Positions 1,225 through 49,100 of a stretch of 64,000 nt of DNA are shown here, piece after piece (positions within the stretch are counted from its first letter, which is position 1; the number at the start of each line of letters is the position of its first letter). Origin of the DNA: Escherichia coli (lineage in GTDB: Bacteria > Pseudomonadota > Gammaproteobacteria > Enterobacterales > Enterobacteriaceae); the NCBI RefSeq assembly GCF_003334305.1, contig NZ_QOWS01000009.1, one strand, 5' to 3'. The translations under genes and the position numbers were made by a program. The notes under the pieces are model-generated. The model had not been told where the DNA came from, searched no databases, and saw nothing but the letters and a program-made list of their open reading frames with translations.

Positions 1225-1229
1225 GGCAC

Positions 1230-1919: not shown

Positions 1920-1925
1920 AAAACA

Positions 1926-4034
1926 TTAATTTCGGTTTCGGGTGACTTTAATCACGTCTGGCATCACGCGGATTTTGCGCATGATATTCGCCAGATGCAC
2001 ACGGTCACGGGCGGTCAGACGAATAAAGGCGCTGTAGACGCGACCATCTTTCTCTTCCGTATTCAAACTTTGAATATTCGAAGTCGTGGTGTTAATTGCC
2101 GCCGTCAGGTTTGCCAGCGCGCCCTGATGATTGAACATCTCCACCTTGATTTCGGTGATGAACTCCTGCGCCGTCTCTTTATCCCATTCCACAGCCATAA
2201 ACTTCTCTGGCTCTTTCTGGTAGCCACGGATATTACGGCAGGATTCATGGTGGATCACCAGACCTTTACCGGGGCTGACGTGGGCGATAATCGGGTCGCC
2301 AGGAATAGGGCGGCAGCATTTCGCAAAGGTGATCAGCACGCCATCGGCACCTTTAATGGGCAGATGTCCGTGGCTTTGGGTTGCCGGTGGAATGGAGGCG
2401 TCCCCATGTTGCAGATTTTTCGCGACCACCACGCTCATTGCGTTACCAAGTCCGATTTCTGCCAGCAGATCGTCAAGCGTTGCCAGCTTCATGCGATCCA
2501 GCTCGCGCTGAATATTTTCCTGCGGGATTTCATTCAGCTTACGGCTACCACCCAAAGCATGGTTGAGCAGACGACGGCCCAGGCTTACAGAATCATCACG
2601 CTTGAGGTTTTTCAGCAACTGACGAATTTTGGCGCGCGCTTTTGAGCTAACGACAAAGTTCAGCCACGCGGCATTCGGGCGAGCGCCCGGTGCGGTAATG
2701 ATTTCAACGGTTTGACCGCTGGTAAGCGGCTGCGACAGCGGGTAAGGCTGGCGGTCAACGCGTGCGCCCACGCAGGCATGACCGATATCGGTATGCACTG
2801 CATAAGCGAAGTCGACGGGCGTTGCACCGGCAGGCAGCTCGACAATTCGCCCTTCCGGTGTGAAAACGTAAATCTCATCCGGGAAGAGATCGGATTTAAC
2901 GCTCTCGATAAATTCAAACGAACTACCGGCGCTCTGTTGCAGCTCCAGCAGGCTTTGCATCCAGCGCTGGGCGCGGATTTGCGCGGTGGTGCTGGTTTCG
3001 CCGTGCTCTTTATAAGCCCAGTGCGCGGCAACACCCATCTCCGCCATCTGATCCATATCTTCGGTACGGATCTGGACCTCAACCGGCACACCGTGCGGGC
3101 CGATCATCGAGGTGTGCAAAGACTGATAGCCGTTCGCTTTTGGAATGGCGATGTAGTCTTTCACGCGACCCGGACGCGGCTTGTACAGGCTATGCATTTG
3201 CCCGAGCACGCGATAACAGGTGTCAGAATCATTGACGATCACGCGGAAAGCGTAGATGTCCATGATTGAGTGAAAACGCTGCTCTTTGAGCACCATTTTG
3301 CAGTAAATCGAATAAAGATGCTTTTCGCGACCACTGACGCGGCACGGTATTCCCGCTTCCTGCAAACGCCCTTCGATTTCAGAGAGGATTTTTTGGATCA
3401 TCTCTTTACGGTTGCCGCGCGCGGCTTTCACCACTTCTTTAATTACGCGGTAACGATTGGGATACAGCGCCTCAAAACCCAGCTCTTCGAGTTCGGTTTT
3501 AATGTGGTGGATACCTAAACGGTGCGCCAGCGGGCTATAAATTTCGAGAGTTTCACGGGCGATGCGGCGACGTTTGTCCGGGCGAAGTGAGCCCAGCGTG
3601 CGCATGTTGTGGGTACGGTCGGCAAGTTTGATGAGGATGACGCGGATATCCTGCACCATCGCCATAATCATCTTGCGAAAGTTTTCGGCCTGCGCCTCTT
3701 TCTTATCGCGGAACTTGAGTTTATCAAGTTTCGACACCCCCTCTACCAGCTCGGCGACGCTTTTACCAAAAAGCTGTTCCATATCCTGGTAGGTGGCGGG
3801 AGTATCTTCAATCACGTCATGCAGCAGCGCCGCCATCAGCGTTTCATAGTCGAGTTTCATCTCGGCCAGAATGCAGGCAACCGCTACCGGGTGCGTGATA
3901 TAGGGTTCACCGCTTGAACGTGTTTGCCCCTCGTGAGCATCACGTGCAACGAGATACGCCTGCCGCAGACGCTTGATTTGGTCTTCCGGCAGGTAGGTTT
4001 GAATCAGTTGATTCAGGCTTTCAAACAGATACAA
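1926..4034 (-). CDS. spoT: bifunctional (p)ppGpp synthetase/hydrolase SpoT
   Basis: 702-aa ORF with HD hydrolase and RelA/SpoT synthetase regions; length matches E. coli SpoT. Confidence 0.97.
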   Translation of the reverse strand: MYLFESLNQLIQTYLPEDQIKRLRQAYLVARDAHEGQTRSSGEPYITHPVAVACILAEMKLDYETLMAALLHDVIEDTPATYQDMEQLFGKSVAELVEGVSKLDKLKFRDKKEAQAENFRKMIMAMVQDIRVILIKLADRTHNMRTLGSLRPDKRRRIARETLEIYSPLAHRLGIHHIKTELEELGFEALYPNRYRVIKEVVKAARGNRKEMIQKILSEIEGRLQEAGIPCRVSGREKHLYSIYCKMVLKEQRFHSIMDIYAFRVIVNDSDTCYRVLGQMHSLYKPRPGRVKDYIAIPKANGYQSLHTSMIGPHGVPVEVQIRTEDMDQMAEMGVAAHWAYKEHGETSTTAQIRAQRWMQSLLELQQSAGSSFEFIESVKSDLFPDEIYVFTPEGRIVELPAGATPVDFAYAVHTDIGHACVGARVDRQPYPLSQPLTSGQTVEIITAPGARPNAAWLNFVVSSKARAKIRQLLKNLKRDDSVSLGRRLLNHALGGSRKLNEIPQENIQRELDRMKLATLDDLLAEIGLGNAMSVVVAKNLQHGDASIPPATQSHGHLPIKGADGVLITFAKCCRPIPGDPIIAHVSPGKGLVIHHESCRNIRGYQKEPEKFMAVEWDKETAQEFITEIKVEMFNHQGALANLTAAINTTTSNIQSLNTEEKDGRVYSAFIRLTARDRVHLANIMRKIRVMPDVIKVTRNRN

Positions 4035-4052
4035 GGGCGACCCGCTTTGTGA

Positions 4053-4328
4053 TTAACGACGACCTTCAGCAATAGCGGTAACGGCTTGTAATTCAGCGGC
4101 TTCCTGCTCTTGCTGTTCCTGGCGTTCGCGAACGTCGAGGATCTGGTTGTTGATCAGACCTTCTTCGATTTCGCGCAGCGCGATTACAGTGGTTTTATCG
4201 TTTTCTTCCGGTACCAGCGGATCCTTTCCGCCTACCTGCATCTGACGAGCGCGACGCGCGGCGACCAGTACCAGGTCAAAACGGTTACCAATTTTCTCTA
4301 CAGCGTCCTGAACAGTTACGCGTGCCAT
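4053..4328 (-). CDS. rpoZ: RNA polymerase omega subunit
   Basis: 91-aa [32 protein letters not shown]...; immediately upstream of spoT. Confidence 0.97.
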
Positions 4329-4382
4329 ACTTAAAAAGCTCCACAGGTGAAGAAATGACTGGGCATGATACTGAAATCAGGT

Positions 4383-5130
<748 letters not shown>

Positions 5131-5149
5131 TTTCCGCATTTGCCTGTGA

Positions 5150-7560
<2,411 letters not shown>

Positions 7561-7851
7561 GGTTCTCTCCCTAAAAATCTGTCTGGCAGGGTAGCGATTT
7601 GTGCGTATTGTCACGATTGAGATTTTTTAAGGTGAGAGGAAATTGATAACTTGTAGTTATGTGAAATCGCTATTTTCTGTAGCGTAGATGCATTCTTCTG
7701 ACTTCTTGTCTGAGAAAATGCATAAGAAAAAATAGGTTAAAATTGAGGGGTGGAAAAGAAAGGTGCAATGTTTAGCCATTGTGTTCACCGCACCTGGACT
7801 TTGGCTTACGCATCGGGCATCTCAATCAACAAAAAGAGTTTTTAGTTTCTG

Positions 7852-8676
7852 CTATTTCTTCTCTGTAATTTTTACACTGTTTTCCAACTGCTTGATGCTG
7901 ACCTGCGGGGTCGGCAACTCCTCAGGCATGGTTCCGCCAAGTTCCTGAATGGTTTGCCTCACCTTGCTACCCACGTCAAAGTGTGTGGTATTAGCTTGCT
8001 GTTTTGAATTCACGCCATCCCGCTTGAGTTTTTCTTCTGTTTGGGTAGCTCGAAAGAGATTAGCCGCCAGTTCTGTTGAACCCATATGATCCAGGATCTT
8101 CTGACTCTTTTTCAGCCCCTTCAGTTGGTGGATGGCTTTCTGATCTAATCCACCATACAGCCCCTGGTAACCATGATTCTGAAATATGGCGAAATCAGTA
8201 GCTGTCGCTACCCCAGCTTGCTGTGCTGCCTCAACCAATTGTTTGTTATGTTCTTTCAACTCATTTCTCAGAAACAGACGCTTTTCGTCTTCACGAAGTT
8301 GCTTAAATGCTTCATCGTCAGCAAGCTCCTGCCGTCGGGTCTGGATAGCAAAATAAGTCTGCCCTGCCGCAATGACCGGTTTCGCAGGGTCGCCGTTTTG
8401 TACTACCAGGTAACAGGCATAGCGGGAGAGATGAACATCTTCAAGTTCTCGTTGAGCCCCTGAACCTAATACAACCATTTTGGTGGTTTCAACGAAATGG
8501 TCAGATGCAGCTTGATTGCTGGCTTCGCACGCTTGAGTCGCGCGGGCCAGTACCTTTTGAAAATTGCGCCAGTCCCGATAATCCAGTAACGGTGCCAATT
8601 CTCTAGCTGACCAAAATTCTTGCCCTTCAGTGCCATAATGCCGTATTTCTTCAAAAGGTTGATGATGTTCGTTCAT
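7852..8676 (-). CDS. dinD: DNA damage-inducible protein D
   Basis: ORF 7852-8688; start trimmed to MNEHHQPFEEIRHYGTEGQEFW (274 aa); LexA box upstream. Confidence 0.9.
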   Translation of the reverse strand: MNEHHQPFEEIRHYGTEGQEFWSARELAPLLDYRDWRNFQKVLARATQACEASNQAASDHFVETTKMVVLGSGAQRELEDVHLSRYACYLVVQNGDPAKPVIAAGQTYFAIQTRRQELADDEAFKQLREDEKRLFLRNELKEHNKQLVEAAQQAGVATATDFAIFQNHGYQGLYGGLDQKAIHQLKGLKKSQKILDHMGSTELAANLFRATQTEEKLKRDGVNSKQQANTTHFDVGSKVRQTIQELGGTMPEELPTPQVSIKQLENSVKITEKK

Positions 8677-8719
8677 TGCCCACTCCATGTGATATCGATT
8701 GCAAAGAAAGTAAATCTGT

Positions 8720-8739
8720 AACTGTATTTATATACAGTT
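8720..8739 (-). promoter_or_regulatory. LexA (SOS) box in dinD promoter
   Basis: CTGTATTTATATACAG at 8722-8737 fits CTGT-N8-ACAG consensus, about 45 bp upstream of dinD start. Confidence 0.8.
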
Positions 8740-8828
8740 GTGAGTATCTCACGTTCTCAGTGTGCTGGGCAAAAAAACATCGCAAAATCTGGAGCAGGCA
8801 CGCAAAACAGAATTGAAGTTGCGGGGAA

Positions 8829-8862
8829 GAAAAATGCCGCTCTGTTTGAGTGGGCGGCATTT
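8829..8862 (-). terminator. rho-independent terminator downstream of yicC
   Basis: Minus-strand hairpin ATGCCGC...GCGGCAT followed by T-run, about 35 nt after yicC stop. Confidence 0.6.
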
Positions 8863-8896
8863 GTGAAGGCTGAAAAGTAAGAATTAGTGTTACGAG

Positions 8897-9760
8897 TTAC
8901 TCAATATTCTGAATCTGCTCGCGCATCTGCTCAATCAACACTTTCAGCTCGATGGCGGAGTTTGTCACTTCGGCATTGATAGATTTCGACGCAAGAGTGT
9001 TCGACTCGCGGTTGAATTCCTGCATCATAAAGTCCAGACGACGACCAACGGCTTCTTTTTTCTTCAGAATGTTGTAGGTCTCTTTGACATGCGCTTCCAG
9101 GCGGTCCAGTTCTTCGGCAACGTCAATTCGTTGTGCCAGCAGAACCAGCTCCTGCTCCAGACGGTTGTTTTCCAACTGAACCTGAGCATCTTCCAGCTTC
9201 GCGACCAGACGCTCACGCTGCCATTGCAGGATTTCCGGCATATGGGCGCGGACTTTGACCACTTCGGCGGTGACGCCTTCCAGACGCTGCTCGATCAATG
9301 CTTTCAGCGCCTGACCTTCGGTTTCGCGCGCGACGATAAAGTCGTCCAGCGTACCATCCAACGCCGCGAGAATTTCAGCGGCAATCGCGTCGAGATCCTG
9401 CTCCTGGGCTGCCATCACGCCCGGCCAGCGTAGAATATCAACCGGGTTGATTTCCCCTTCGTCACTCTGCATTTTTACCCAGTTCGCGGCAGTTACCAGC
9501 TGTTTAGCCAGTTTTTCATTGAGGATCAGCTCACCTTGTGCGCTAACATCTGGCTCATAGCGCAGGGTACATTCCACTTTACCGCGCGTCAGGCGAGAAC
9601 GAATACGCTCGCGAACGACAGGTTCAAGGCTACGGAACTGCTCCGGCAGACGAAAGTAAGTTTCCAGATAACGCTGGTTTACCGAGCGCATTTCCCAGGT
9701 TGCGCTCCCCCATTCACCCTTGATTTCACGCCGGGCGTAGGCGGTCATACTGCGGATCAT
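8897..9760 (-). CDS. yicC: UPF0701 protein YicC (YicC-family stress-induced protein)
   Basis: 287-aa ORF MIRSMTAYARREIKGEWGSATWEMRSVNQRYLE...; divergent from rph. Confidence 0.93.
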   Translation of the reverse strand: MIRSMTAYARREIKGEWGSATWEMRSVNQRYLETYFRLPEQFRSLEPVVRERIRSRLTRGKVECTLRYEPDVSAQGELILNEKLAKQLVTAANWVKMQSDEGEINPVDILRWPGVMAAQEQDLDAIAAEILAALDGTLDDFIVARETEGQALKALIEQRLEGVTAEVVKVRAHMPEILQWQRERLVAKLEDAQVQLENNRLEQELVLLAQRIDVAEELDRLEAHVKETYNILKKKEAVGRRLDFMMQEFNRESNTLASKSINAEVTNSAIELKVLIEQMREQIQNIE

Positions 9761-17897: not shown

Positions 17898-18221
17898 AGT
17901 AAATAGCTGACTTATGGATGTGCTGGGGATTCTATGTATTTAGCTGTGGCTTTACCATTACTTTTCCCGTTTTTGACTTAAATAGCAATTTACCCGCCAA
18001 TTCTTGCTGAACATCTATACTTTTTTTGTATTTTTATGCGATTCATTGATTTCTGCTGTACGTGCAGGAAGGAATCGCAGAGCAACAGTGAAAGAATATG
18101 GTTGCTAATGATTTTATTTGATTGATTTCTTTATTGAAAATCAACAATGTGCTTAAAAATCATTCGGGTCGGATTGCCGCGAAAGAAGTGATACACTAGC
18201 GCGTCAATATCAGTGCGGTAT

Positions 18222-18262
18222 CAGTATTCAGGTAGCTGTTGAGCCTGGGGCGGTAGCGTGCT
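18222..18262 (+). promoter_or_regulatory. JUMPstart element with ops site in waaQ leader
   Basis: GGCGGTAGCGTG at 18249-18260 matches the ops consensus; upstream GGTAGC direct repeat; about 50 nt before waaQ. Confidence 0.85.
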
Positions 18263-18309: not shown

Positions 18310-19368
18310 GTGGATAAGCCATTTCGAAGAATTTTGCTCATTAAGATGCGTTTTCATGGGGATATGTTATTAACTACTCCCGTCATTAGTTCGCTGAAAA
18401 AAAATTACCCTGACGCAAAAATCGATGTGCTGCTTTATCAGGACACCATCCCGATCCTGTCTGAAAATCCAGAGATTAACGCGCTCTACGGCATAAAAAA
18501 TAAAAAAGCAAAAGCCTCAGAAAAAATTGCCAACTTTTTTCATCTCATCAAGGTATTACGTGCCAATAAGTATGACCTTATCGTCAATCTTACCGATCAA
18601 TGGATGGTTGCTATACTGGTTCGCTTATTAAATGCCCGTGTGAAAATTTCCCAGGATTATCATCATCGGCAGTCTGCTTTTTGGCGTAAAAGTTTCACCC
18701 ATTTGGTGCCGTTGCAGGGTGGAAATGTGGTGGAAAGTAACTTATCCGTGCTGACACCATTGGGACTTGATTCGTTGGTGAAGCAGACAACCATGAGTTA
18801 CCCGCCTGCAAGCTGGAAACGTATGCGTCGCGAACTTGATCACGCTGGTGTTGGACAAAATTATGTGGTTATCCAACCTACGGCGCGGCAAATCTTCAAA
18901 TGCTGGGACAACGCCAAGTTTTCCGCTGTGATTGATGCCTTACATGCTCGTGGTTATGAAGTCGTTCTGACGTCCGGCCCAGATAAAGACGATCTGGCCT
19001 GCGTCAATGAAATTGCGCAGGGATGCCAGACGCCACCAGTAACGGCGCTGGCTGGAAAGGTGACCTTCCCGGAACTTGGTGCGTTAATCGATCATGCGCA
19101 GCTGTTTATTGGCGTTGATTCCGCACCGGCGCATATTGCCGCTGCAGTTAATACGCCGCTGATATCGCTGTTTGGTGCGACAGACCATATTTTCTGGCGT
19201 CCCTGGTCAAATAACATGATTCAATTCTGGGCGGGAGATTACCGGGAAATGCCAACGCGCGATCAGCGTGACCGAAATGAGATGTATCTTTCGGTTATTC
19301 CGGCGGCAGATGTCATTGCTGCTGTCGATAAATTACTGCCCTCCTCCACGACAGGTACGTCGTTATGA
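18310..19368 (+). CDS. waaQ: LPS heptosyltransferase III
   Basis: GT9 heptosyltransferase; ORF begins with GTG at 18310 (RILLIK motif included); a TTG at 18334 is an alternative start. Confidence 0.85.
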   Translation: MDKPFRRILLIKMRFHGDMLLTTPVISSLKKNYPDAKIDVLLYQDTIPILSENPEINALYGIKNKKAKASEKIANFFHLIKVLRANKYDLIVNLTDQWMVAILVRLLNARVKISQDYHHRQSAFWRKSFTHLVPLQGGNVVESNLSVLTPLGLDSLVKQTTMSYPPASWKRMRRELDHAGVGQNYVVIQPTARQIFKCWDNAKFSAVIDALHARGYEVVLTSGPDKDDLACVNEIAQGCQTPPVTALAGKVTFPELGALIDHAQLFIGVDSAPAHIAAAVNTPLISLFGATDHIFWRPWSNNMIQFWAGDYREMPTRDQRDRNEMYLSVIPAADVIAAVDKLLPSSTTGTSL

Positions 19369-20489
19369 TCGTTGCTTTTTGTTTATATAAATATTTTCCC
19401 TTTGGCGGTTTGCAGCGTGATTTTATGCGTATTGCTCAGACAGTCGCCGCCCGAGGTCATCATGTTCGGGTTTATACCCAGTCGTGGGAAGGCGAATGCC
19501 CTGATGTATTTGAACTGATCAAAGTGCCGGTTAAATCGCATACCAATCACGGGCGCAATGCGGAGTATTTTGCCTGGGTGCAAAAACATTTACGCGAACA
19601 TCCCGTCGATAAAGTCGTTGGATTCAACAAAATGCCGGGGCTGGACGTTTATTATGCCGCTGATGTTTGTTATGCCGAGAAAGTAGCGCAGGAAAAAGGC
19701 TTTTTCTATCGCCTGACGTCACGTTATCGCCATTATGCCGCCTTTGAGCGGGCAACCTTCGAACAGGGCAAGCCGACACAGCTGCTGATGCTGACAGATA
19801 AGCAAATCGCCGATTTCCAGAAACATTATCAGACTGAAGCGGAGCGTTTTCATATTCTGCCACCGGGGATTTATCCTGATCGTAAATATAGCCAGCAGCC
19901 AGCCAATAGCCGTGAAATCTTCCGTAAGAAGAATGGAATAACCGAACAACAATATTTATTGTTGCAGGTCGGTTCAGACTTCACGCGTAAAGGTGTCGAT
20001 CGTTCCATTGAAGCACTTGCTTCGTTACCGGATTCGCTGCGCCACAACACATTGCTATATGTTGTTGGGCAGGATAAACCGCGAAAATTTGAGGCGCTGG
20101 CAGAAAAACGCGGTGTGCGCAGTAATGTTCACTTTTTCTCGGGGCGCAATGATGTCTCGGAATTAATGGCGGCGGCGGATTTATTACTGCATCCTGCCTA
20201 CCAGGAAGCGGCGGGAATTGTGCTGCTGGAAGCGATTACTGCAGGATTACCGGTACTAACAACTGCCGTTTGTGGCTATGCGCATTATATTGTCGACGCT
20301 AATTGCGGCGAGGCTATTGCTGAGCCATTCCGCCAGGAAACATTGAATGAGATTTTACGCAAAGCGTTAACGCAATCTTCATTGCGCCAGGCCTGGGCGG
20401 AAAATGCGCGACATTATGCTGATACACAAGATTTATACAGTCTGCCAGAGAAAGCGGCGGATATCATAACGGGTGGTCTGGATGGTTGA
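19365..20489 (+). CDS. waaG: LPS glucosyltransferase I (GT4)
   Basis: 374-aa ORF; ATGA overlap with waaQ stop. Confidence 0.93.
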
Positions 20490-21279
20490 ACTTAAAGAGC
20501 CGTTTGCCACGTTATGGCGCGGCAAAGATCCTTTTGAGGAAGTTAAAACCTTGCAGGGTGAGGTATTTCGTGAACTGGAAACTCGCCGTACTCTGCGCTT
20601 TGAAATGGCGGGCAAAAGCTATTTTCTCAAATGGCATCGCGGCACGACCCTGAAAGAGATAATCAAAAATTTACTCTCATTGCGGATGCCAGTATTAGGC
20701 GCTGACCGCGAATGGAATGCGATTCATCGACTGCGGGATGTCGGCGTTGATACTATGTATGGGGTGGTATTTGGCGAAAAAGGCATGAATCCGCTGACCA
20801 GAACTTCATTTATTATTACCGAAGATCTGACACCAACCATAAGTCTGGAAGATTACTGTGCTGACTGGGCGACTACCCCTCCAGATGTTCGCGTAAAGCG
20901 TATGCTTATTAAGCGTGTCGCGACGATGGTGCGCGATATGCATGCTGCGGGCATTAACCACCGTGACTGTTATATCTGTCATTTCCTGCTGCACTTGCCT
21001 TTTTCCGGTAAGGAAGAGGAGTTAAAAATTTCGGTAATTGACCTGCACCGGGCGCAGCTTCGCACGCGCGTTCCACGTCGTTGGCGGGATAAAGATCTTA
21101 TTGGGCTTTATTTTTCTTCGATGAATATCGGCCTGACTCAGCGGGATATCTGGCGGTTTATGAAAGTGTATTTTGCCGCCCCGCTTAAAGACATTCTCAA
21201 GCAGGAACAAGGACTGCTGTCGCAAGCAGAAGCAAAAGCCACAAAAATCAGGGAAAGAACGATTCGAAAATCGTTGTAA
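20482..21279 (+). CDS. waaP: LPS core heptose(I) kinase
   Basis: ORF 20473-21279; start trimmed to [21 protein letters not shown] (265 aa). Confidence 0.92.
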
Positions 21280-21294
21280 TTTCCGGAGAGAAAT

Positions 21295-22311
21295 ATGAGT
21301 GCCCACTATTTTAATCCACAAGAGATGATCAATAAGACAATCATCTTCGATGAAAGGCCAGCGGCGTCAGTGGCATCATCATTCCATGTTGCTTATGGCA
21401 TTGATAAAAACTTTCTTTTTGGTTGTGGTGTTTCAATCACGTCAGTTTTGTTACATAACAACGACGTGAGTTTTGTTTTCCACGTTTTTATTGATGATAT
21501 CCCTGAAGCCGATATCCAGCGTTTAGCCCAATTGGCGAAAAGCTATCGTACCTGTATCCAGATCCATCTAGTAAATTGTGAACGGCTTAAGGCATTACCG
21601 ACGACCAAAAATTGGTCTATTGCCATGTATTTCCGTTTTGTAATTGCAGATTACTTTATTGATCAACAAGATAAGATCCTTTACCTGGATGCTGATATCG
21701 CCTGTCAGGGAAACTTAAAGCCGCTGATAACAATGGATCTTGCCAATAACGTTGCTGCTGTTGTTACTGAACGCGATGCTAACTGGTGGTCGTTACGGGG
21801 TCAAAGTCTGCAGTGTAATGAACTTGAAAAGGGTTACTTTAATTCAGGTGTCCTGTTAATTAATACACTAGCGTGGGCGCAGGAGTCCGTTTCTGCTAAA
21901 GCGATGTCGATGCTTGCTGATAAAGCCATCGTTTCCCGTTTAACCTATATGGATCAAGATATCCTTAATCTTATCCTGTTAGGGAAAGTTAAATTCATTG
22001 ATGCTAAATACAATACGCAATTTAGTTTAAATTATGAATTAAAAAAATCATTTGTTTGTCCAATTAATGATGAAACCGTATTAATTCATTATGTCGGCCC
22101 GACAAAACCCTGGCATTACTGGGCCGGTTATCCAAGTGCGCAACCTTTTATCAAAGCCAAAGAAGCATCGCCCTGGAAAAATGAACCGTTAATGCGGCCA
22201 GTTAACTCAAACTATGCTCGTTATTGCGCCAAGCATAATTTTAAACAAAACAAACCAATTAACGGGATAATGAATTATATTTATTATTTTTATTTAAAGA
22301 TAATAAAATGA
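21295..22311 (+). CDS. waaO: GT8 LPS alpha-1,3-glucosyltransferase (R1-type WaaO)
   Basis: 338-aa GT8 retaining glycosyltransferase; first gene of the AT-rich outer-core block. Confidence 0.75.
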   Translation: MSAHYFNPQEMINKTIIFDERPAASVASSFHVAYGIDKNFLFGCGVSITSVLLHNNDVSFVFHVFIDDIPEADIQRLAQLAKSYRTCIQIHLVNCERLKALPTTKNWSIAMYFRFVIADYFIDQQDKILYLDADIACQGNLKPLITMDLANNVAAVVTERDANWWSLRGQSLQCNELEKGYFNSGVLLINTLAWAQESVSAKAMSMLADKAIVSRLTYMDQDILNLILLGKVKFIDAKYNTQFSLNYELKKSFVCPINDETVLIHYVGPTKPWHYWAGYPSAQPFIKAKEASPWKNEPLMRPVNSNYARYCAKHNFKQNKPINGIMNYIYYFYLKIIK

Positions 22312-22327
22312 AATTGAGAAAAGTTAA

Positions 22328-23323
22328 ATGAATGAATTTATAAAAGAACGGTTTTCGTATTTAGCAGATAATAAAAAAGAAAACGCCCCAGAGCTAAATG
22401 TTTCCTACGGTATCGATAAGAATTTTTTGTATGGTGCTGGCGTTTCAATTTCTTCCGTTTTGATTAATAATTCAGATATTAATTTTGTCTTTCATGTTTT
22501 CACTGATTATGTGGATGATGATTATTTAAAGTCATTTAATGAAACAGCAAAACAATTTAATACCTCAATTATTGTATATTTAATTGACCCCAAATACTTT
22601 GCTGATCTGCCGACGTCACAGTTTTGGTCGTACGCGACATACTTCAGGGTATTGTCTTTTGAATATCTGAGTGAAAGTATTTCCACACTGCTGTATCTGG
22701 ATGCCGATGTTGTTTGTAAAGGAAGCCTGAAACCTCTCACAGAAATTATATTTAAAGATGAGTTTGCTGCGGTCATTCCTGACAATGATAGTACTCAGGC
22801 GGCATGTGCAAAACGCCTCAACATTCCCGAAATGAATGGACGTTATTTCAATGCAGGCGTTATCTATGTCAATCTTAAAAAATGGCATGAAGCAAATTTG
22901 ACACCGTATTTACTCAAACTTTTACGAGGGGAAACTAAATATGGCTCTCTTAAATATTTAGATCAGGATGCGTTGAATATCGCATTTAATATGAATAATA
23001 TCTACCTTGCGAAGAATTTTGATACTATTTATACCCTGAAAAACGAACTTTATGATCGTAGTCATCGAAAGTATCAGCAAACCATTACCGATAAAACAGT
23101 GTTGATTCACTATACAGGGATAACTAAACCATGGCATAGCTGGGCTGGATATCCGTCTGCATCATACTTTAATATCGCGCGTGAACAATCTCCCTGGAAG
23201 AAATATCCTCTTAAAGAGGCGCGGACTGTTGCAGAAATGCAGAAACAATATAAGCATCTGTTTGCCCATGGTGAGTATATAAAAGGCATAACTTCATTAA
23301 TTAAGTACAAGCTTAAGAAATAA
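22328..23323 (+). CDS. waaT: GT8 LPS alpha-1,2 hexosyltransferase (R1-type WaaT)
   Basis: 331-aa GT8 paralogue; position between waaO and waaY. Confidence 0.7.
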   Translation: MNEFIKERFSYLADNKKENAPELNVSYGIDKNFLYGAGVSISSVLINNSDINFVFHVFTDYVDDDYLKSFNETAKQFNTSIIVYLIDPKYFADLPTSQFWSYATYFRVLSFEYLSESISTLLYLDADVVCKGSLKPLTEIIFKDEFAAVIPDNDSTQAACAKRLNIPEMNGRYFNAGVIYVNLKKWHEANLTPYLLKLLRGETKYGSLKYLDQDALNIAFNMNNIYLAKNFDTIYTLKNELYDRSHRKYQQTITDKTVLIHYTGITKPWHSWAGYPSASYFNIAREQSPWKKYPLKEARTVAEMQKQYKHLFAHGEYIKGITSLIKYKLKK

Positions 23324-23332
23324 ATTACTCTT

Positions 23333-24025
23333 ATGATTACAAGTATACGTTATCGCGGCTTCTCATTTTATTACAAAGATAATGATAATAAATATAAAGA
23401 AATCTTTGATGAAATACTGGCCTATAATTTTAAAACAGTAAAAGTATTACGTAATATTGATGATACCAAAGTATCATTGATTGATACGAAATATGGTCGC
23501 TATGTTTTTAAAGTCTTTGCCCCGAAAACGAAAAGGAATGAACGTTTTTTAAAATCTTTTGTAAAAGGTGACTACTATCAGAATTTGATCGTTGAAACCG
23601 ATCGTGTCAGAAGTGCAGGTCTTACTTTTCCTAATGATTTTTATTTTCTGGCTGAGCGTAAAATTTTCAACTATGCCAGTGTTTTTATTATGCTTATCGA
23701 GTATGTCGAGGGCGTAGAGCTCAATGATATGCCGATTATTCCAGAAAATGTTAAAGCAGAAATTAAGGCTTCAATGGAAAAATTGCATGCCTTAAATATG
23801 CTATCGGGCGACCCACACCGGGGTAATTTTATCGTTAGTAAAGATGGTGTCAGGATAATTGACCTATCCGGTAAAAGCTGTACGGCAGAGCGTAAAGCTC
23901 GTGATCGTCTGGCCATGGAACGTCACCTGGGTATTGCCAACGAAATAAAAGATTATGGCTACTATTCAGTAATCTACAGAACCAAACTACGCAAATTTAT
24001 TAAAAAATTAAAAGGCAAAGCGTAA
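23333..24025 (+). CDS. waaY: LPS core heptose(II) kinase
   Basis: 230-aa ORF; kinase-like; conserved position in waa clusters. Confidence 0.85.
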   Translation: MITSIRYRGFSFYYKDNDNKYKEIFDEILAYNFKTVKVLRNIDDTKVSLIDTKYGRYVFKVFAPKTKRNERFLKSFVKGDYYQNLIVETDRVRSAGLTFPNDFYFLAERKIFNYASVFIMLIEYVEGVELNDMPIIPENVKAEIKASMEKLHALNMLSGDPHRGNFIVSKDGVRIIDLSGKSCTAERKARDRLAMERHLGIANEIKDYGYYSVIYRTKLRKFIKKLKGKA

Positions 24026-24050
24026 ACCACACAGTCAAAACGGAACCAAC

Positions 24051-25076
24051 ATGGATTTATTAGCTGAGAGTATTACTGAAGTCGCTGTCTCTGGGGAAAT
24101 TGCTAACACCGATCGTGTGTTAAATATCGCTTACGGTATTGACCGTAACTTTTTATTTGGTGCGGCAGTATCTATGCAATCAGTTGTTATGCATAACCCG
24201 GACCTTGCGGTTAAGTTTCATCTCTTTACCGACTACATTGATGAAGATTATCTACAACGTGTTAATGCTTTTACCAGCAAAAATGCTAACGTTGAAGTAA
24301 TAATTTATAAAGTCTCCAATGCCTTTATTGATATCTTCCCCAGCCTGAAACAGTGGTCTTATGCAACATTCTTCCGTTTAGTTGCGTTCCAGTATTTGAG
24401 TGAAACTATTGAAAATCTGTTATATATCGATGCTGATGTCATCTGTAAAGGCTCATTAGCTGGATTGCTTGATATTAATTTTGATGAGGATAAGTTCGCA
24501 GCTGTTATTAAAGATGTGCCTTTTATGCAGGAAAAACCAGCGAAGCGTCTGGCTATAGAGGGACTTCCAGGGAATTATTTCAACGCCGGTGTAGTATATC
24601 TGCAGCTTGAAGCATGGGCGAAAAATGATTTTATGAATAAAGCCATTGCTATGCTGGCAAGTGACCCGCAGCACACGAAGTATAAATGCCTTGATCAGGA
24701 TATTTTAAATATTCTGTTCTTTGGTCATTGTATTTTTATTAGCGGCGATTATGATTGCTTTTATGGCATTGACTATGAGTTAAAAAATAAAAGCGATGAA
24801 GATTATAAAAAGACCATTACCGATGATACTAAGCTGATTCATTATGTTGGCGTAACGAAGCCCTGGAACGACTGGACGAATTATCCCTGCCAGAAGTATT
24901 TTAATGAGGCTTATCAGGCTTCTTGCTGGAATGATGTGGCGTTTATTCCAGCCACGAATGAAAAGCAGTATCAAGTGAAATATCAACATGCAAAGAAAAA
25001 TGGTGATACGTTTAACGCTTTTATTTACTTCATTAAATTTAAATTAAATAAGTATAAAAGAAAACTATTTGGATAA
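24051..25076 (+). CDS. waaW: GT8 LPS alpha-1,2 hexosyltransferase (R1-type WaaW)
   Basis: 341-aa third GT8 paralogue, sharing the NIAYGIDxNFLFG N-terminal motif with waaO/waaT. Confidence 0.7.
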   Translation: MDLLAESITEVAVSGEIANTDRVLNIAYGIDRNFLFGAAVSMQSVVMHNPDLAVKFHLFTDYIDEDYLQRVNAFTSKNANVEVIIYKVSNAFIDIFPSLKQWSYATFFRLVAFQYLSETIENLLYIDADVICKGSLAGLLDINFDEDKFAAVIKDVPFMQEKPAKRLAIEGLPGNYFNAGVVYLQLEAWAKNDFMNKAIAMLASDPQHTKYKCLDQDILNILFFGHCIFISGDYDCFYGIDYELKNKSDEDYKKTITDDTKLIHYVGVTKPWNDWTNYPCQKYFNEAYQASCWNDVAFIPATNEKQYQVKYQHAKKNGDTFNAFIYFIKFKLNKYKRKLFG

Positions 25077-25160
25077 TAATAAAAATCATGGATGTCTGAG
25101 TTACAATAATAATTAAGGATGAGTACTATCATATTTTATTAGTTCAGGCAAGAGAACACG

Positions 25161-26144
25161 ATGAGCAATGATTACCCTTTAGTATCCATAATAATACCGA
25201 CGTATAATTCATCTGATTACATTACTGAAACTCTAACGAAATTAGAAAAACAAACTTACCCAAATTTTGAAATTGTTATTGTTAATGATGGTTCTAAAGA
25301 TAACACATCAAACGTTTTGAGAGAGTATGGGTTAACCCACTCTCGATTAATTATTATCAATAAAGAAAATGGCGGTGTTTCGTCTGCCAGGAATACAGGT
25401 ATCCGCAAGGCGCAAGGACAGTTTATATGTTTTATGGATGATGATGATGAGATAGATCCTAACTATCTGCTGAAGATGTATACCAGACAACATGAGACGG
25501 GAGGGGATGCGATTTATTGTGGGCTTTATGGCCATTATATAAAAGATGGTGTTACTTACTCACCTATAAATACAGAGTTTAATGAAGGATCTTTACTTTT
25601 CGACTTTTTTTATAAAAAGGTTAGATTCCATATAGGGTGCTTGTTTATAAGAAAACAACTTCTGGAAGAGAATAATCTTTTTTTTGATGAAGATTTACGA
25701 CTAGGAGAAGATCTTGATTTTATCTATCGACTGCTAATTACATGCGATATGTATGCGGTTCCATATTATATGTATAAGCATAACTATAGAGAAAATTCCT
25801 TAATGAACTCATGTAGAACCATCACTCATTATCGACATGAGTCATTTGCGCACGAAAGAATCTACTCTTCTGTGATGCAGTTATACAAAGGTAACCGGAA
25901 AGAAGAAATTCATACATTATTGAGTCAAAATAGAGCTTATCATAAAACTCGTTATTTATGGAATGTTCTACTTAATGGTGATTTTAAACTATTGAATCAA
26001 TTAGTTGAAAACAATGATAAAGAATTAAGAGATTGTAATCTTCCTGGCAAGAGAGATAAGAGACGAGCAAAAATATTAGCATCAAAAAATTATATTCTCT
26101 GGAGGATGGTAAGACTGGTAAATAGAAAAAAGAATAAACGTTAG
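25161..26144 (+). CDS. waaV: GT2 LPS beta-glucosyltransferase (R1-type WaaV)
   Basis: 327-aa GT2 with SIIIPTYNSSDYITETL and FMDDDDEIDP motifs; a GT2 here (not GT25 WaaX or GT9 WaaK) indicates R1. Confidence 0.7.
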   Translation: MSNDYPLVSIIIPTYNSSDYITETLTKLEKQTYPNFEIVIVNDGSKDNTSNVLREYGLTHSRLIIINKENGGVSSARNTGIRKAQGQFICFMDDDDEIDPNYLLKMYTRQHETGGDAIYCGLYGHYIKDGVTYSPINTEFNEGSLLFDFFYKKVRFHIGCLFIRKQLLEENNLFFDEDLRLGEDLDFIYRLLITCDMYAVPYYMYKHNYRENSLMNSCRTITHYRHESFAHERIYSSVMQLYKGNRKEEIHTLLSQNRAYHKTRYLWNVLLNGDFKLLNQLVENNDKELRDCNLPGKRDKRRAKILASKNYILWRMVRLVNRKKNKR

Positions 26145-26189
26145 ATCTTGCATTAAATAACCCATCCTCGTAGCATAGGTTGAAACTAT

Positions 26190-27443
26190 ATGTCGTTTTG
26201 TTGGAATGAAATTAATTCTGGTATAAAGTCTTTAATTCTCATATTATGTATTTTTTCTTTAATGACTTTGTCTTTATGGGATGATGTTGCAACAAAGTTT
26301 CTTCATGCAGCTGGAATTATATCTGCATTGTATTTTCTTGCGACACCAAAAAAAACAATAACTAATAATCCTACTTTGTTAATTTTCATCTCATTATGTC
26401 TTTTGGGTATCGTAAATATCATCTGGTATTCACATTATAAAGTTTCAGGCTCTGTTTATACCAATGCATATCGTGGCCCAATGGAAACTGGAAAAATTGC
26501 CTTGTGTAGCGCTTTTATTTTCTTAGTTCTTTTTGCTAAAAATGAGATGAGAACAAAAATAAAATTTGGGAAACTAATTCTGTTCGCATCCCTGGCAACG
26601 CAGTTACTTTTTTTTGCGCATGCCATGTGGCAACATTTCTATTTAAACGTCGACCGTGTTGCATTATCAGCTTCCCACGCTACAACAGCAGGCTACATCA
26701 TCCTTTTTCCTTCTTTACTGGCATCAATTCTCATTTTAAAATCCGACTTTAGACATAAAACAACATTATATACAATTAACTTCATGCTTAGCTTATGTGC
26801 TGTCATAGTAACTGAGACGCGTGCAGCCATATTAGTGTTTCCATTCTTTGCGTTAATATTAATCGTAATGGATAGTTATATTAATAAGCGAATTAATTAT
26901 AAGTTATATTGTTTTATTACGATTGCATTATTAGCAGGTGTATTTTCTTTTAAAGATACATTGCTTATGAGAATGAATGACTTAAATAACGATTTAGTTA
27001 ATTATTCGCATGATAACACCAGAACTTCAGTCGGTGCCCGTCTGGCAATGTATGAAGTTGGCTTAAAAACATATTCTCCAATAGGACAATCACTGGAAAA
27101 ACGTGCGGAAAAAATACATGAACTAGAAGAAAAAGAGCCTAGATTGAGTGGCGCTTTACCCTATGTAGATTCTCATTTGCATAACGATCTCATAGATACG
27201 TTATCAACGCGTGGTATTCCTGGAGTTGTATTAACAATTTTAGCATTTTCAGCAATACTCATATATGCCTTAAGAACTGCTAAAGAACCTTATATTTTAA
27301 TCTTGCTTTTTTCACTACTGGTAGTAGGACTAAGTGATGTAATACTCTTTTCTAAACCGGTTCCGACTGCTGTGTTTATCACCATAATATTGCTTTGTGC
27401 TTATTTTAAAGCACAATCGGACCAATGTTTATTAGAGAAGTAA
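26190..27443 (+). CDS. waaL: O-antigen ligase
   Basis: 417-aa polytopic membrane protein at the canonical end of the outer-core operon. Confidence 0.88.
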   Translation: MSFCWNEINSGIKSLILILCIFSLMTLSLWDDVATKFLHAAGIISALYFLATPKKTITNNPTLLIFISLCLLGIVNIIWYSHYKVSGSVYTNAYRGPMETGKIALCSAFIFLVLFAKNEMRTKIKFGKLILFASLATQLLFFAHAMWQHFYLNVDRVALSASHATTAGYIILFPSLLASILILKSDFRHKTTLYTINFMLSLCAVIVTETRAAILVFPFFALILIVMDSYINKRINYKLYCFITIALLAGVFSFKDTLLMRMNDLNNDLVNYSHDNTRTSVGARLAMYEVGLKTYSPIGQSLEKRAEKIHELEEKEPRLSGALPYVDSHLHNDLIDTLSTRGIPGVVLTILAFSAILIYALRTAKEPYILILLFSLLVVGLSDVILFSKPVPTAVFITIILLCAYFKAQSDQCLLEK

Positions 27444-27457
27444 TGAATATGTGAAAT

Positions 27458-27486
27458 AAAATCAGCAAGGAAGCTGATTTTATTTC
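27458..27486. terminator. bidirectional terminator between convergent waaL and waaC
   Basis: ATCAGC-AAGGAA-GCTGAT hairpin flanked by A-run and T-run. Confidence 0.7.
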
Positions 27487-27512
27487 AAAATTATCTATTA
27501 AAGAGTTGTAAT

Positions 27513-28484
27513 TTAAATCATGGCAGCGTTTTCTTCAATGAACCGCTTAACAGCATTTGCTGTCAATTGAGACAACTCATTCCCCGGAGCCCTACAAACC
27601 ATCTGATTCTTCCCATACCCACCAATTAATCCCGGATCGGTTGGTCCATAAACCGTGATATTGGGTCTATCCAGTGCCGCCGTTAAATGGCTTAACCCCG
27701 TATCCACCGACACTACAAATTTAGCCCCGGCCAGCACGCGGGCAACGCCTTCCAGACTCATCTTCGGCAATACTTCAACATAAGCAAATCCTTCCGCCAG
27801 TCGTTTCGCCCGTTCTTCCTCATGCGGCGCGCCCCACGGAAGTTTAATCCGTATTCCTGAATCAGCCAGTAAACCAATCAATTCTCGCCAGTGTTCTTCC
27901 GGCCAGTGTTTATCATCACGGGTCGTCGCATGAAGAAATACGGCATATTCGCCAGCATCTGTAGGCAGGTTCGTCAGAAAATGCTGTGCGATAGCATAAT
28001 CGCCCTGGGTTTGCGGTTTGCTATAGCCCAAACTTTTGGCAAACAGTTCGCGGGTGCGTTCTACGGCGTGCTGCTGTTTTGCAATATGATGCTTACGATT
28101 GTAAAACAGGCTGGCTAAAGGTTCGCGAGCGGTTTGCCAGTCCATGCCATGCTTTACGCCATGCGCCAGACGCGTCACCAGCGCCGCGCTTTTTACCAGC
28201 CCCTGAGCGTCGATAACTGCGTCATAGTTCTCTGCTTGTAGCGCTTCACGAAACGCTTTGCGTTCAGCTTTTATAGGGGCCGAGAACCAGGCTTTACGCC
28301 AGCGACGTATTGCCACAGGAATAACTCGCTCAACGGCAGCGTGCCAGGAAGGAATCTGTGCGAACCCTTCTTCCACCACCCAGTCAAACTTAATTTCTGG
28401 GATTGCCTGCTGGGCATCAGTGAGTGCGGGCAACGTATGGAGAACATCGCCCATCGACGATGTTTTAACGATCAAAACCCGCAT
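27513..28484 (-). CDS. waaC: LPS heptosyltransferase I
   Basis: 323-aa ORF MRVLIVKTSSMGDVLHTLPALTDA... Confidence 0.95.
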   Translation of the reverse strand: MRVLIVKTSSMGDVLHTLPALTDAQQAIPEIKFDWVVEEGFAQIPSWHAAVERVIPVAIRRWRKAWFSAPIKAERKAFREALQAENYDAVIDAQGLVKSAALVTRLAHGVKHGMDWQTAREPLASLFYNRKHHIAKQQHAVERTRELFAKSLGYSKPQTQGDYAIAQHFLTNLPTDAGEYAVFLHATTRDDKHWPEEHWRELIGLLADSGIRIKLPWGAPHEEERAKRLAEGFAYVEVLPKMSLEGVARVLAGAKFVVSVDTGLSHLTAALDRPNITVYGPTDPGLIGGYGKNQMVCRAPGNELSQLTANAVKRFIEENAAMI

Positions 28485-30476: not shown

Positions 30477-30689
30477 AACTGTAACCTTCGAATTATGGAG
30501 TCAGAGACAATCTCAGACACGAATACTTCTATCATATCACTACACGGCGTTGGCTTCAGCCATTCGCCAAAAGTGAGATTGATGGACGTTATTTATCCTG
30601 AATTTTGCAGAAGTGTTAACGCGTCATCTCGTCGCGACCTATAAGTTTGGGTAATATGTGCTGGAATTTGCCCTGTCTGGAGAATCGCA

Positions 30690-33159: not shown

Positions 33160-34194
33160 ATGATGAACAGCACCAATAAACTTAGTGTTATTATTCCGTT
33201 ATATAATGCGGGCGATGATTTCCGCACTTGTATGGAATCTTTAATTACGCAAACCTGGACTGCTCTGGAAATCATTATTATTAACGATGGTTCAACGGAT
33301 AATTCTGTTGAAATAGCAAAGCATTACGCAGAAAACTATCCGCACGTTCGTTTGTTGCATCAGGCGAATGCTGGCGCATCGGTAGCGCGTAATCGTGGGA
33401 TCGAGGTGGCGACGGGCAAATATGTCGCTTTTGTCGATGCTGACGATGAGGTCTATCCCACCATGTACGAAACGCTGATGACCATGGCGTTAGAGGATGA
33501 CCTCGACGTGGCGCAGTGCAACGCTGACTGGTGTTTTCGTGAAACGGGAGAAACCTGGCAATCCATCCCCAGCGATCGCCTTCGCTCAACCGGCGTATTA
33601 ACCGGCCCGGACTGGCTGCGGATGGGGCTTTCTTCGCGCCGTTGGACTCACGTTGTCTGGATGGGGGTTTATCGCCGTGATGTTATTGTTAAAAATAACA
33701 TTAAATTTATTGCCGGATTACATCATCAGGATATTGTCTGGACAACAGAATTCATGTTTAACGCGCTGCGTGCGCGATATACCGAGCAATCATTATATAA
33801 ATATTATCTGCATAATACGTCAGTGAGTCGGTTGCATAGACAAGGGAATAAAAACCTTAATTATCAACGTCACTATATTAAGATTACCCGCCTGCTGGAG
33901 AAATTAAATCGAAATTATGCCGACAAAATTACGATTTATCCGGAATTTCATCAGCAAATAACTTACGAAGCATTGCGTGTTTGCCATGCGGTGCGCAAAG
34001 AGCCGGATATTCTTACCCGCCAACGGATGATTGCCGAGATATTTACTTCCGGTATGTATAAGCGCCTGATTACCAATGTGCGCAGCGTGAAGGTCGGTTA
34101 CCAGGCGTTACTGTGGTCTTTCCGCTTATGGCAATGGCGCGACAAAACGCGGTCGCACCATCGCATTACGCGTAGCGCCTTTAATTTGCGCTAG
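33160..34194 (+). CDS. waaH: GT2 glycosyltransferase WaaH (YibD)
   Basis: 344-aa GT2 (SVIIPLYNAGDD..., VDADDE). Confidence 0.92.
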   Translation: MMNSTNKLSVIIPLYNAGDDFRTCMESLITQTWTALEIIIINDGSTDNSVEIAKHYAENYPHVRLLHQANAGASVARNRGIEVATGKYVAFVDADDEVYPTMYETLMTMALEDDLDVAQCNADWCFRETGETWQSIPSDRLRSTGVLTGPDWLRMGLSSRRWTHVVWMGVYRRDVIVKNNIKFIAGLHHQDIVWTTEFMFNALRARYTEQSLYKYYLHNTSVSRLHRQGNKNLNYQRHYIKITRLLEKLNRNYADKITIYPEFHQQITYEALRVCHAVRKEPDILTRQRMIAEIFTSGMYKRLITNVRSVKVGYQALLWSFRLWQWRDKTRSHHRITRSAFNLR

Positions 34195-46197: not shown

Positions 46198-49100
46198 TTA
46201 CCACTGAATACCGGCACCGAGTGCGGCGGAGTATTCACCCTGGCTATTGGTACTACCTTGTAATTTGTAGACCCAACGACCATTGGCGCTCACCATCGAT
46301 ACACCTAAAGCAACTGCCGATTCACCGTTGTAAGTACCGCCACCAATAGAAGCCATGCTGGCACCCGGTGTATAAGCCTGCGGCAGACCGGTCATTGCCA
46401 TTGCAGAAGCGATACCACCGCTCAACTTGCTTTCAGTTTTAGACAGTTTGTTATCCATTTCAACCATTCGCTGATCGGTGTATTGCTTCGTTTCCTGCAC
46501 GCTTTGCTTCAACTGCGCGTAATTCACCGCGTCGTTGTTGTTGACGCCAGCGGAGACGTTGCTGATACGAGTCGTACCGCCGTTGCCGCCACCGAGGGTG
46601 ATATTGCTATAGTCGATAGAACCATCAGCTTTGGTGTCGTAACGCACACCGCCAGCTTCGGAAGACTTCAACTGTGCCACGTTAACAGCATCGGTGTCGT
46701 TTTTACCTGCGGCTACGTTGGTGATACGACGTTGATTAGTAGATGAGCCTACAGAGATCGTATTTTCTTCGGTTGCCACAGACCCTGTACCCAGTGCGAC
46801 GCTGTTATCCGCGGCAGCAATGGAGCCAGAACCAATCGCGACGCTATCTTTACCCTGCGCGCTGGCATCTACACCATCGGTATTGGTCTTGAAGTACTTG
46901 GTGCTACCGGTGGTGACGATATCGCCAATACCGTTTTCGATATTGGTGACGCGTGAATCAAGATTCGTTACCCGATTATCCAGGTTAGTAATGCTCTGGG
47001 TATTCTGGGAAACCTGCGCATCCGTTACTTTCAACTGACCCACGTTGACCGCATCGGTATCAGCCGAACCTGCTGCGACGTTAGTGATCTGACGTTGACC
47101 ATCCGCACTACCGACTGAGAATTCACCGACAGAGTTCTGCGGTGCGTCCATGTTGTAGGCGGTATAATTGGTTTGAGCGCCACGAGTGGTCGTAGAACCA
47201 TTACCTATCGCAATACTGTTGACATGAATGACTTGCGCATTGCTACCAATGGCAATGCCGTTAAGTGCATTCGCGTCCACGTAGGCACCATAACCGATAC
47301 CAATACCTTTATCGCCATTCACGATGGTTTTCGCACCCATTGCCAGCGAGTCAGTTCCCACTGCCAGTGAATCTTCTTCCGTTGAATTAGCGTGGAAGTA
47401 TTTAGTCGGCGTGGTTGCGACCGCACCAATCGCATTCTGCAATTGACGAACCGTAACGGCGTCATGGGCTTCGGAACCATCGGCTACGTTGATGATTTGA
47501 CGATATTTACCGTCATCACCGATAGACAATGCACCGAGCAGTTCGCCATCCGTGGTGTCGTAACCAATAACAACGCCATTTTCCGTTATGCTGGTGTCAC
47601 GGGAGCCTTTGGCAATCACTCGGCTGGAAACAGAGCTGCTACCCAGGGCGATACCCGTATCAACGTCGCTGTAGCTGCCCTGACCAATAGCTACGCTGCT
47701 ATCGCCTTTGGCGACAGAGTTATAACCTATAGCTGTAGCGCCAACACCCTGTGCGCTGGCGTCGTTGAACGCTAAGCCGTCGTCGTTAGTACGCACATAG
47801 TTAATACCCGCACCGTTTTCTTGGATATAGGTTGCGTCGGTGTTACCAGCGAGCTGATTGATAATTTGGGTGTTCTGCTCAATCATCATATTCGTCGCAT
47901 TCAACTGAGAACCGTTCACTGCATCGGTACTGTCCTCACTAATACTGCCATTAGCGACATTAGTGATGATGCTGGCTTTACCGTCATGGCTGGCATTGTA
48001 GGCTCCAGCACCGCCATTGGCAGTCTCATCCCACAGCAAGGCGTTATCATCAAGCGCATCCAGGGCGTCACCGACGTTGTTGTACTCGGCGTTCGCAATG
48101 GTGTAAGTCGGTGCGGTGATGGTGCCGTCAGCGTTGACTTCTGCGTCACCACCCAGCGCATCAGCGATGTACTTATTGGTGGTATAGAGTTGTGAGCCGT
48201 TAATCGCGTCGCTGCTGGCAGCAGAGATTGCACCGTTAGCGACGTTAGTGATTACACTGGCAGTTTTATCTTTTCCGTGAGCGGCGCTAAATGCACCATT
48301 TTCACCGGCGTCCGCATCCCAGAGCAGAGCGTCGTCAAGAGTGGTATCGATAGCATTCAGGGCATCACCGACATTATCGTAATCAGCATTAGCAATGGTG
48401 TACGTCGGCGCAGTGATGGTGCCGTCTGCATTGACTTCGGCACCACCCCCCAGCGCATCAACAACATAACTGCTCACGCCGTGGAGTTGTGAGCCGTTTA
48501 CTGCGTCAGAACTGGAGTCTGAAATTTCACCATCTGCGACATCAGTGATCACGCTTGCGTCACCATTAGTACCGTGTTTGGCACTGAATTTACCTGCGGT
48601 GGCATCCCAAAGCAGAGCATCGCCGAGAGACGTGCTAAATGAGGAGTTAATCGCAGCCAGTGCATCGCCGACGTTATAATAATTTGTTTCACCGATTTTG
48701 TAGGTTGGACCGGTAAACACACCGTCAGTATTCACAGAAGCATTGCCGCCGAAGTAGGTGGCGATATTGCTGCTTAAGTCATAAAGCTGGCTACCGTTAA
48801 TGGCATCGGAACTGGTTGCAGTGACTGTGCCGTCCAGGATATTGGTGATTTTGCTGGCGGTATTGTTGCCATGAGCTGCAGTGAAGACACCATTGTCCTT
48901 ATCCCATTTCAGCGCATCCTCACCAAGATTAGTCACCGTCTCAGTCAGATTAGAGATGTTGGTGGTGTTAGTGGCGATATTGGTGGTATTCGTCGCCACG
49001 GCATCGTTGGTGGTTTTCAACTGAGAGCCGTTAACGGCATCGGTGCTGCCAGTCGTCAGGTCGCCATCTTTAACGTTGGTGATTTTGCTGGTGGTCTCGG

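Follow-up and report, generated by a model that had tools for sequence, protein, structure and literature searches.

An AT-rich outer-core lipopolysaccharide block of Escherichia coli as part of an R1-type waaQ operon

Several core types of lipopolysaccharide (LPS) have been described in Escherichia coli. The attachment site of the O antigen depends on the core type, as do the phages and antibodies able to recognise cells that are rough or partly shielded and the choice of a core-based vaccine or typing scheme. The R1 prototype strains were reportedly studied by Heinrichs et al. in 1998 (J Biol Chem 273:29497) and by Vinogradov et al. in 1999 (cited in PMC3526765, PMC7504096 and PMC12548472). 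R1 has been described as the commonest core type, enriched in extraintestinal pathogens (PMC13293308). The present analysis concerns a stretch of 64,000 nucleotides of E. coli DNA (contig NZ_QOWS01000009.1 of assembly GCF_003334305.1), called the window below, and within it an AT-rich block of the waa locus at 21295-27443 on the plus strand. With a probability that we put at about 96%, this block forms the outer-core half of a canonical and intact R1-type waaQ operon of E. coli. The R1 outer-core set is already known and explained and the finding is an ordinary one, which places the strain in a known type and opens no new question.

The closest described system is the R1 locus, known from strain F470, Shigella sonnei, E. 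coli B and BL21 and many extraintestinal pathogenic E. coli. The window agrees with it in gene content, order and orientation, in ORF lengths, in primer sites, in low GC content and in the JUMPstart leader; two uncommon waaT substitutions are the only difference, and nothing of substance, in a comparison made by means other than direct alignment with the F470 record. The R4 locus has the same architecture, with waaL last in the waaQ operon, and has waaO, waaT, waaY and most of waaW in common with the window. It differs in carrying waaX (GT25, 257 aa) where the window has waaV (GT2, 327 aa), and also in the 3' end of waaC. The K-12 locus occupies the same chromosomal site, between waaA/coaD and waaC, and is equally AT-rich (33% GC). 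Its positional homologues are 51% (WaaO) and 52% (WaaY) identical and its second GT8 protein, WaaJ, is 43% identical to WaaT, but it has waaS, waaB, waaZ and waaU, no waaV, and a waaL that lies in the hldD-waaFC operon on the other strand. In the R3 locus of O157:H7, waaI, waaY, waaJ and an N-acetylglucosamine (GlcNAc) transferase gene are found, with waaL in the waaC operon; there are two GT8 genes only and no GT2 gene.

The map of open reading frames (ORFs) gives six intact genes in the block, between waaP and the convergent waaC: three GT8 paralogues (waaO, waaT and waaW), the kinase gene waaY, one GT2 gene (waaV) and the ligase gene waaL. All six ORFs are full length, free of insertion sequences (IS) and frameshifts, and their order is O-T-Y-W-V-L, so that the whole operon reads waaQ-G-P-O-T-Y-W-V-L on one strand. 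A first-pass annotation of this DNA had listed three GT8 paralogues, waaY, a GT2 gene and waaL between waaP and waaC; its coordinates agree with ours to the base and the family assignments were confirmed. The genes of the operon and its neighbour are as follows.

18310-19368, plus strand: waaQ, inner-core heptosyltransferase III
19365-20489, plus strand: waaG, glucosyltransferase I, 374 aa
ending at 21279, plus strand: waaP, kinase of heptose I (HepI)
18310-21279, plus strand: the waaQ, waaG and waaP names as a group, taken from the annotation of the identical strain A7 and from identity to the R3 and R4 copies
21295-22311, plus strand: waaO, 338 aa, GT8; by orthology, UDP-glucose:(glucosyl)LPS alpha-1,3-glucosyltransferase, adding glucose II (GlcII)
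22328-23323, plus strand: waaT, 331 aa, GT8; by orthology, alpha-1,2-galactosyltransferase, adding galactose I (GalI) onto GlcII
23333-24025, plus strand: waaY, 230 aa, kinase of heptose II (HepII)
24051-25076, plus strand: waaW, 341 aa, GT8; named from its protein cluster and 94% identical to R4 WaaW
25161-26144, plus strand: waaV, 327 aa, GT2; R1-specific beta-1,3-glucosyltransferase for the side-branch beta-glucose on GlcII (function from PMC3526765)
26190-27443, plus strand: waaL, 417 aa, R1-type lipid A-core:surface polymer (O-antigen) ligase
27513-28484, minus strand: waaC, convergent and downstream of waaL, followed by waaF and hldD, also on the minus strand

The R1 type proposed by the first-pass annotation was borne out by the gene order and by the typing primers of the LPSTyper study (PMC13293308), which were run in silico with up to 3 mismatches allowed. 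Primer R1R4-R matched exactly at 24920-24939 in waaW and R1-F exactly at 25743-25761 in waaV, and the resulting product (24920-25761) measures 842 bp, equal to the published size. The seven other primers, for R2, R3, R4 (including R4-F) and K-12, were not found in the window at this threshold. In addition, ORF lengths in the window equal the values reported for strain TK001 (WaaG 374, WaaT 331, WaaY 230, WaaW 341 and WaaV 327 aa; PMC12548472). The R3 and K-12 types were ruled out by comparison with the reference loci, and the R2 type by the missing R2 primers together with a gene set that is not that of R2.

At the DNA level, the 6149 bases of the block are 100% identical to those of E. coli strain A7, from which the whole window differs at 7 positions in 64 kb. 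The block was present nearly full length (at least 80% of it covered) in 1826 of 5426 complete E. coli genomes, and this 33.7% agrees with a published R1 frequency of 35.5% (PMC13293308). Identity to about 1800 E. coli genomes, BL21-lineage DNA among them, is 98-100%. In one strain derived from BL21, IS1 interrupts the waaT gene of this cassette; by contrast the copy in the window is uninterrupted and intact, and an IS-disrupted R1 locus is thereby ruled out. As a separate observation, 3 of the 2540 places matched by the block lie on records labelled as plasmids, which could be misassemblies or real mobilised copies.

The protein families point the same way. WaaO, WaaT and WaaW retain the motifs LDAD(I/V) and HYxGxxKPW, and D132-A-D134 is invariant in a full-length alignment with the GT8 enzymes of K-12 and R3. 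NF011718 was matched by all three paralogues and above its cutoff by WaaO only (612 bits); WaaT, the one GT8 protein on which Pfam was run, gave Glyco_transf_8 and Glyco_transf_8C. The 230-aa protein is RfaY/WaaY by NF007684 (401 bits against a cutoff of 248). The GT2 protein, which the first-pass annotation had considered to fit WaaV by its IIIPTYN and DDDD motifs, contains VSIIIPTYN and FMDDDDEIDP and matches Pfam Glycos_transf_2 (PF00535, E = 1.7e-39); the R1-F site inside its gene and its length, shared with TK001, further uphold that name. WaaL matches Pfam Wzy_C (PF04932, E = 1.1e-18), has many hydrophobic segments as expected of a polytopic membrane protein, and carries at residue 331 the ligase motif H[NSQ]x9Gxx[GTY], here HNDLIDTLSTRGIPG. 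Each of the six proteins belongs, as an exact member, to a large cluster made up of thousands of sequences from E. coli and Shigella sonnei (8159 members for WaaO and 6615 for WaaL); the source names in these clusters include WaaW, WaaY and WaaL. The earlier opinion that the substrate specificity of each GT8 paralogue cannot be read from sequence is fair in the abstract, yet the predicted specificities are assignable through near-identity and orthology to characterised R1 enzymes.

As an alternative, the locus might be of the R4 type, or a hybrid of R1 and R4 as described for ECOR46, and would then give a beta-galactose side branch instead of beta-glucose. Such hybrids exist (PMC13293308), and waaO, waaT, waaY and most of waaW are common to both types, with 99.6% DNA identity to R4 up to position 25008. 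The R4 comparison locus, referred to as H16, has the R4-type gene order and matches the first 60% of the block only; after waaW, at the position of waaX, it has a 257-aa GT25 gene. Between the product of this gene and the GT2 protein of the window nothing was found by BLASTP (best E = 4.4), and no homologue of WaaX, WaaU, WaaZ, WaaS or WaaB was found in the window by tblastn (E <= 1e-3). The missing WaaX and the dissimilarity of the GT25 and GT2 proteins thus identify the GT2 gene as waaV, and no WaaV homologue was found in the K-12, R3 and R4 loci compared. Moreover, the window has a single waaL, whose product is 35% identical to WaaL of H16 and 31% to that of K-12, and it lacks the R4-F site mentioned above. 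An R4 or hybrid locus was extremely improbable on this evidence and is refuted for the 64-kb window. The first-pass annotation had named a better match of the GT2 gene to WaaX as the outcome that would count against WaaV. R4 waaX was instead found to encode a GT25 protein without similarity. As WaaX is not a GT2 enzyme but a member of a different glycosyltransferase family, that comparison was ill-posed and bound to come out negative.

The limits of the R1-type segment were seen when the window was compared with each of the other types. Against R4, the identity that ends at 25008, 68 bp before the waaW stop codon, comes back at 27585 in the 3' end of waaC. Against R3 (O157:H7), identity extends to 21344, 50 bp into waaO, and is back at 27556. 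Against K-12, divergence starts near 18000, in the waaA-waaQ intergenic region, and identity returns at 27586. The R1-specific unit as delimited by these alignments is about 25009-27584 and comprises the end of waaW, waaV, waaL and the last 24 or so codons of waaC. WaaC itself varies in length between types (323, 319 and 330 aa), and its type-specific part is the following.

27513-27585, minus strand: 3' end of waaC in the type-specific segment, with the right-hand breakpoint at 27556-27586

The waaQ, waaG and waaP genes are not a conserved backbone with respect to K-12, from which they differ strongly (66-82% DNA identity; 73% amino-acid identity for WaaQ, 90% for WaaG and 84% for WaaP). Their products are 98-100% identical to the R3 and R4 copies. 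Relative to K-12, the entire waaQ operon is, by alignment, a different allele, and not the outer-core genes alone.

The low GC content noticed in the first-pass annotation was found again: the block has 35.0% GC and the remainder of the window 50.3%, no other stretch of its length (6.1 kb) in the 64 kb, whose median is 50.9%, has a GC content as low, and GC at third codon positions (GC3) goes down to 26-27% in waaV and waaL. Its reading as a mark of cassette replacement held in part. The sharp nested breakpoints against R4, R3 and K-12 support cassette exchange by recombination, but low GC is not special to R1 since the corresponding blocks have 34.6% (R4), 33.3% (K-12) and 33.1% (R3). Low GC as a discriminator of R1 from K-12 was dropped, the other cassettes being at 33-35% GC. 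The cassette is most probably one of several uniformly AT-rich alternative alleles of this chromosomal locus, swapped between strains by homologous recombination in conserved flanks.

Some points weigh against the assignment to a canonical R1 operon. The typed R1 strains entered the comparison indirectly, through primers and reported ORF lengths, and not through the prototype F470 sequence (AF019746). The enzymatic steps assumed for this locus would hold to the extent that the literature on R1 prototypes applies to it. The NCBI rule makes WaaO a 3-alpha-galactosyltransferase, in conflict with the glucosyltransferase role assumed here. Finally, WaaT carries two uncommon substitutions, though at columns that vary among paralogues.

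With regard to WaaO, the same sequence bears two names: PGAP and NCBIfam NF011718 call it 'lipopolysaccharide 3-alpha-galactosyltransferase', and others a UDP-glucose:(glucosyl)LPS alpha-1,3-glucosyltransferase. In the R1 core the position concerned is occupied by glucose, and the equivalog rule NF011718 apparently does not separate WaaO from WaaI. In amino-acid identity, R1 WaaO is slightly nearer to R3 WaaI (55%) than to K-12 WaaO (51%).

With regard to WaaT, the allele of the window has R172 and N230 where the commonest R1/R4 allele has C172 and D230 (C172R, D230N), and only 12 contigs were found to carry it, whereas the common allele was seen on more than 1000. Such rarity, the two changed residues and the fact that inactivated R1 loci do occur, as in E. 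coli B with IS1 in waaT, raise the question of a functionally defective R1 locus that would give a rough or truncated core. We judge this unlikely, to the level of a few chances in a hundred: every ORF has its full length, neither an IS nor a frameshift is present, the catalytic motifs are intact, and both substitutions fall at alignment positions where functional GT8 paralogues differ freely.

Relatives of the cassette elsewhere bear on whether it could be something other than R1. Full-length relatives of WaaV were found at 73, 71, 60, 56, 46, 39 and 36% identity. The closest comes from a metagenome-derived assembly (Logan SRR22936684), referred to as L007, of which positions 1-9237 correspond to window positions 18465-27671 as a collinear waaQGPOTYWVL locus with about 82% DNA identity (76-87% by gene) and with amino-acid identities of 73% for WaaV and 80% for WaaL. 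This locus is possibly a sister cassette to R1, carried by a different species. The 39% relative is a neighbour of waaC on a metagenome-derived contig of 4.35 Mb (L010), where the waa locus has a different arrangement.

The existence of collinear loci with such diverged waaV and waaL genes allows one to think of the block as a distinct core type that merely shares the R1 architecture. This is hardly credible for the window, given its exact membership in the main E. coli protein clusters, its 98-100% DNA identity with E. coli genomes of the BL21 lineage and others, and the exact match of R1 primers that were designed on typed R1 strains. It is likewise improbable, although slightly less so, that R172 and N230 might alter the use of donor or acceptor by WaaT and give a modified R1 core, or, separately, that L007 could mean that the R1 cassette is an old cross-species polymorphism and not a recent import; nothing points positively to altered donor or acceptor use. 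The canonical R1 operon of E. coli is therefore retained as the reading of the block.

A pattern of 29 specified bases conserved in waaV between the window and L007 had one match only among GTDB species-representative genomes. This match, L012 (DVKU01000169.1, 2958 bp), is 99.2% identical to window positions 24817-27774 and covers the 3' end of waaW, waaV, waaL and the 3' end of waaC. It is filed in a metagenome-assembled genome (MAG) of 'Candidatus Avacholeplasma faecigallinarum' (Mollicutes) from chicken faeces, and both ends of the contig are close to the R1/R4 breakpoints. It is most likely E. coli DNA that was mis-binned owing to its low GC content.

On the basis of the literature on R1 prototype strains, an assembly pathway can be proposed for the core encoded by the canonical R1 operon. 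Two heptoses would be transferred onto lipid A-Kdo2 (Kdo, 3-deoxy-D-manno-oct-2-ulosonic acid) by WaaC and WaaF, which act at the cytoplasmic face of the inner membrane. WaaG would then add glucose I (GlcI), while WaaP, WaaQ and WaaY would bring a phosphate, heptose III (HepIII) and a further phosphate, respectively, to the heptose region. In the outer core, GlcII would be added by WaaO in alpha-1,3 linkage, GalI by WaaT in alpha-1,2 linkage and galactose II (GalII) by WaaW in alpha-1,2 linkage (PMC12548472), and WaaV would place the beta-1,3-glucose side branch on GlcII (PMC3526765). After the flip to the periplasm, the R1-type WaaL would join the O antigen, or enterobacterial common antigen (ECA), linked to undecaprenyl pyrophosphate (Und-PP), to the beta-glucose (PMC7504096).

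Expression of the operon could depend on its leader, and a hairpin lies at its other end.

18222-18260, plus strand: JUMPstart element in the waaQ operon leader (55.2 bits with Rfam RF01707, whose gathering score is 35)
27452-27487, no strand assigned: perfect 15-bp inverted repeat with a loop of 6, between the convergent waaL and waaC

Within the JUMPstart element, the ops sequence GGCGGTAG is found at 18249. The two together form a predicted RfaH-dependent antitermination site, which fits the known RfaH-dependent expression of the waaQ operon; RNA polymerase modified by RfaH, recruited at the ops site of the leader, would read through the operon. The hairpin at 27452-27487 is terminator-like and possibly works in both directions. 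A search for internal promoters found 34 sigma-70 sites in the block against 32.1 +/- 6.2 in shuffles, hence no excess.

Other features of the window were observed outside the operon. No htrL/yibB gene was found between hldD and kbl (30477-30689), and tblastn detected no HtrL in the window. K-12 and O157:H7 have the gene between rfaD and kbl, and A7 and the R4 strain examined lack it; at the hldD-kbl gap, the window has about 60 bp where K-12 has about 1.28 kb. A further LPS gene, waaH (yibD), is located outside the waa cluster at 33160-34194, with a somewhat low GC content of about 44-48%; it belongs to GT2 and is annotated as a UDP-glucuronate:LPS(HepIII) glycosyltransferase.

A gene of 4.85 kb for the trimeric autotransporter adhesin EhaG lies at about 46198-51048 on the minus strand and contains internal repeats, about 86% identical, around 48842-49375. 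It is followed at 51-53 kb by an AT-rich region with yibL, yibT and a DUF3251 gene. Finally, the part from about 59428 to 64000 is the AT-rich end (32-38% GC) of an Rhs element, in which the annotation of A7 places the rhsB C-terminus, yhhH, yibA, two truncated RHS core fragments, yibG and a frameshifted Imm57 immunity gene, and it looks like an orphan toxin/immunity array.

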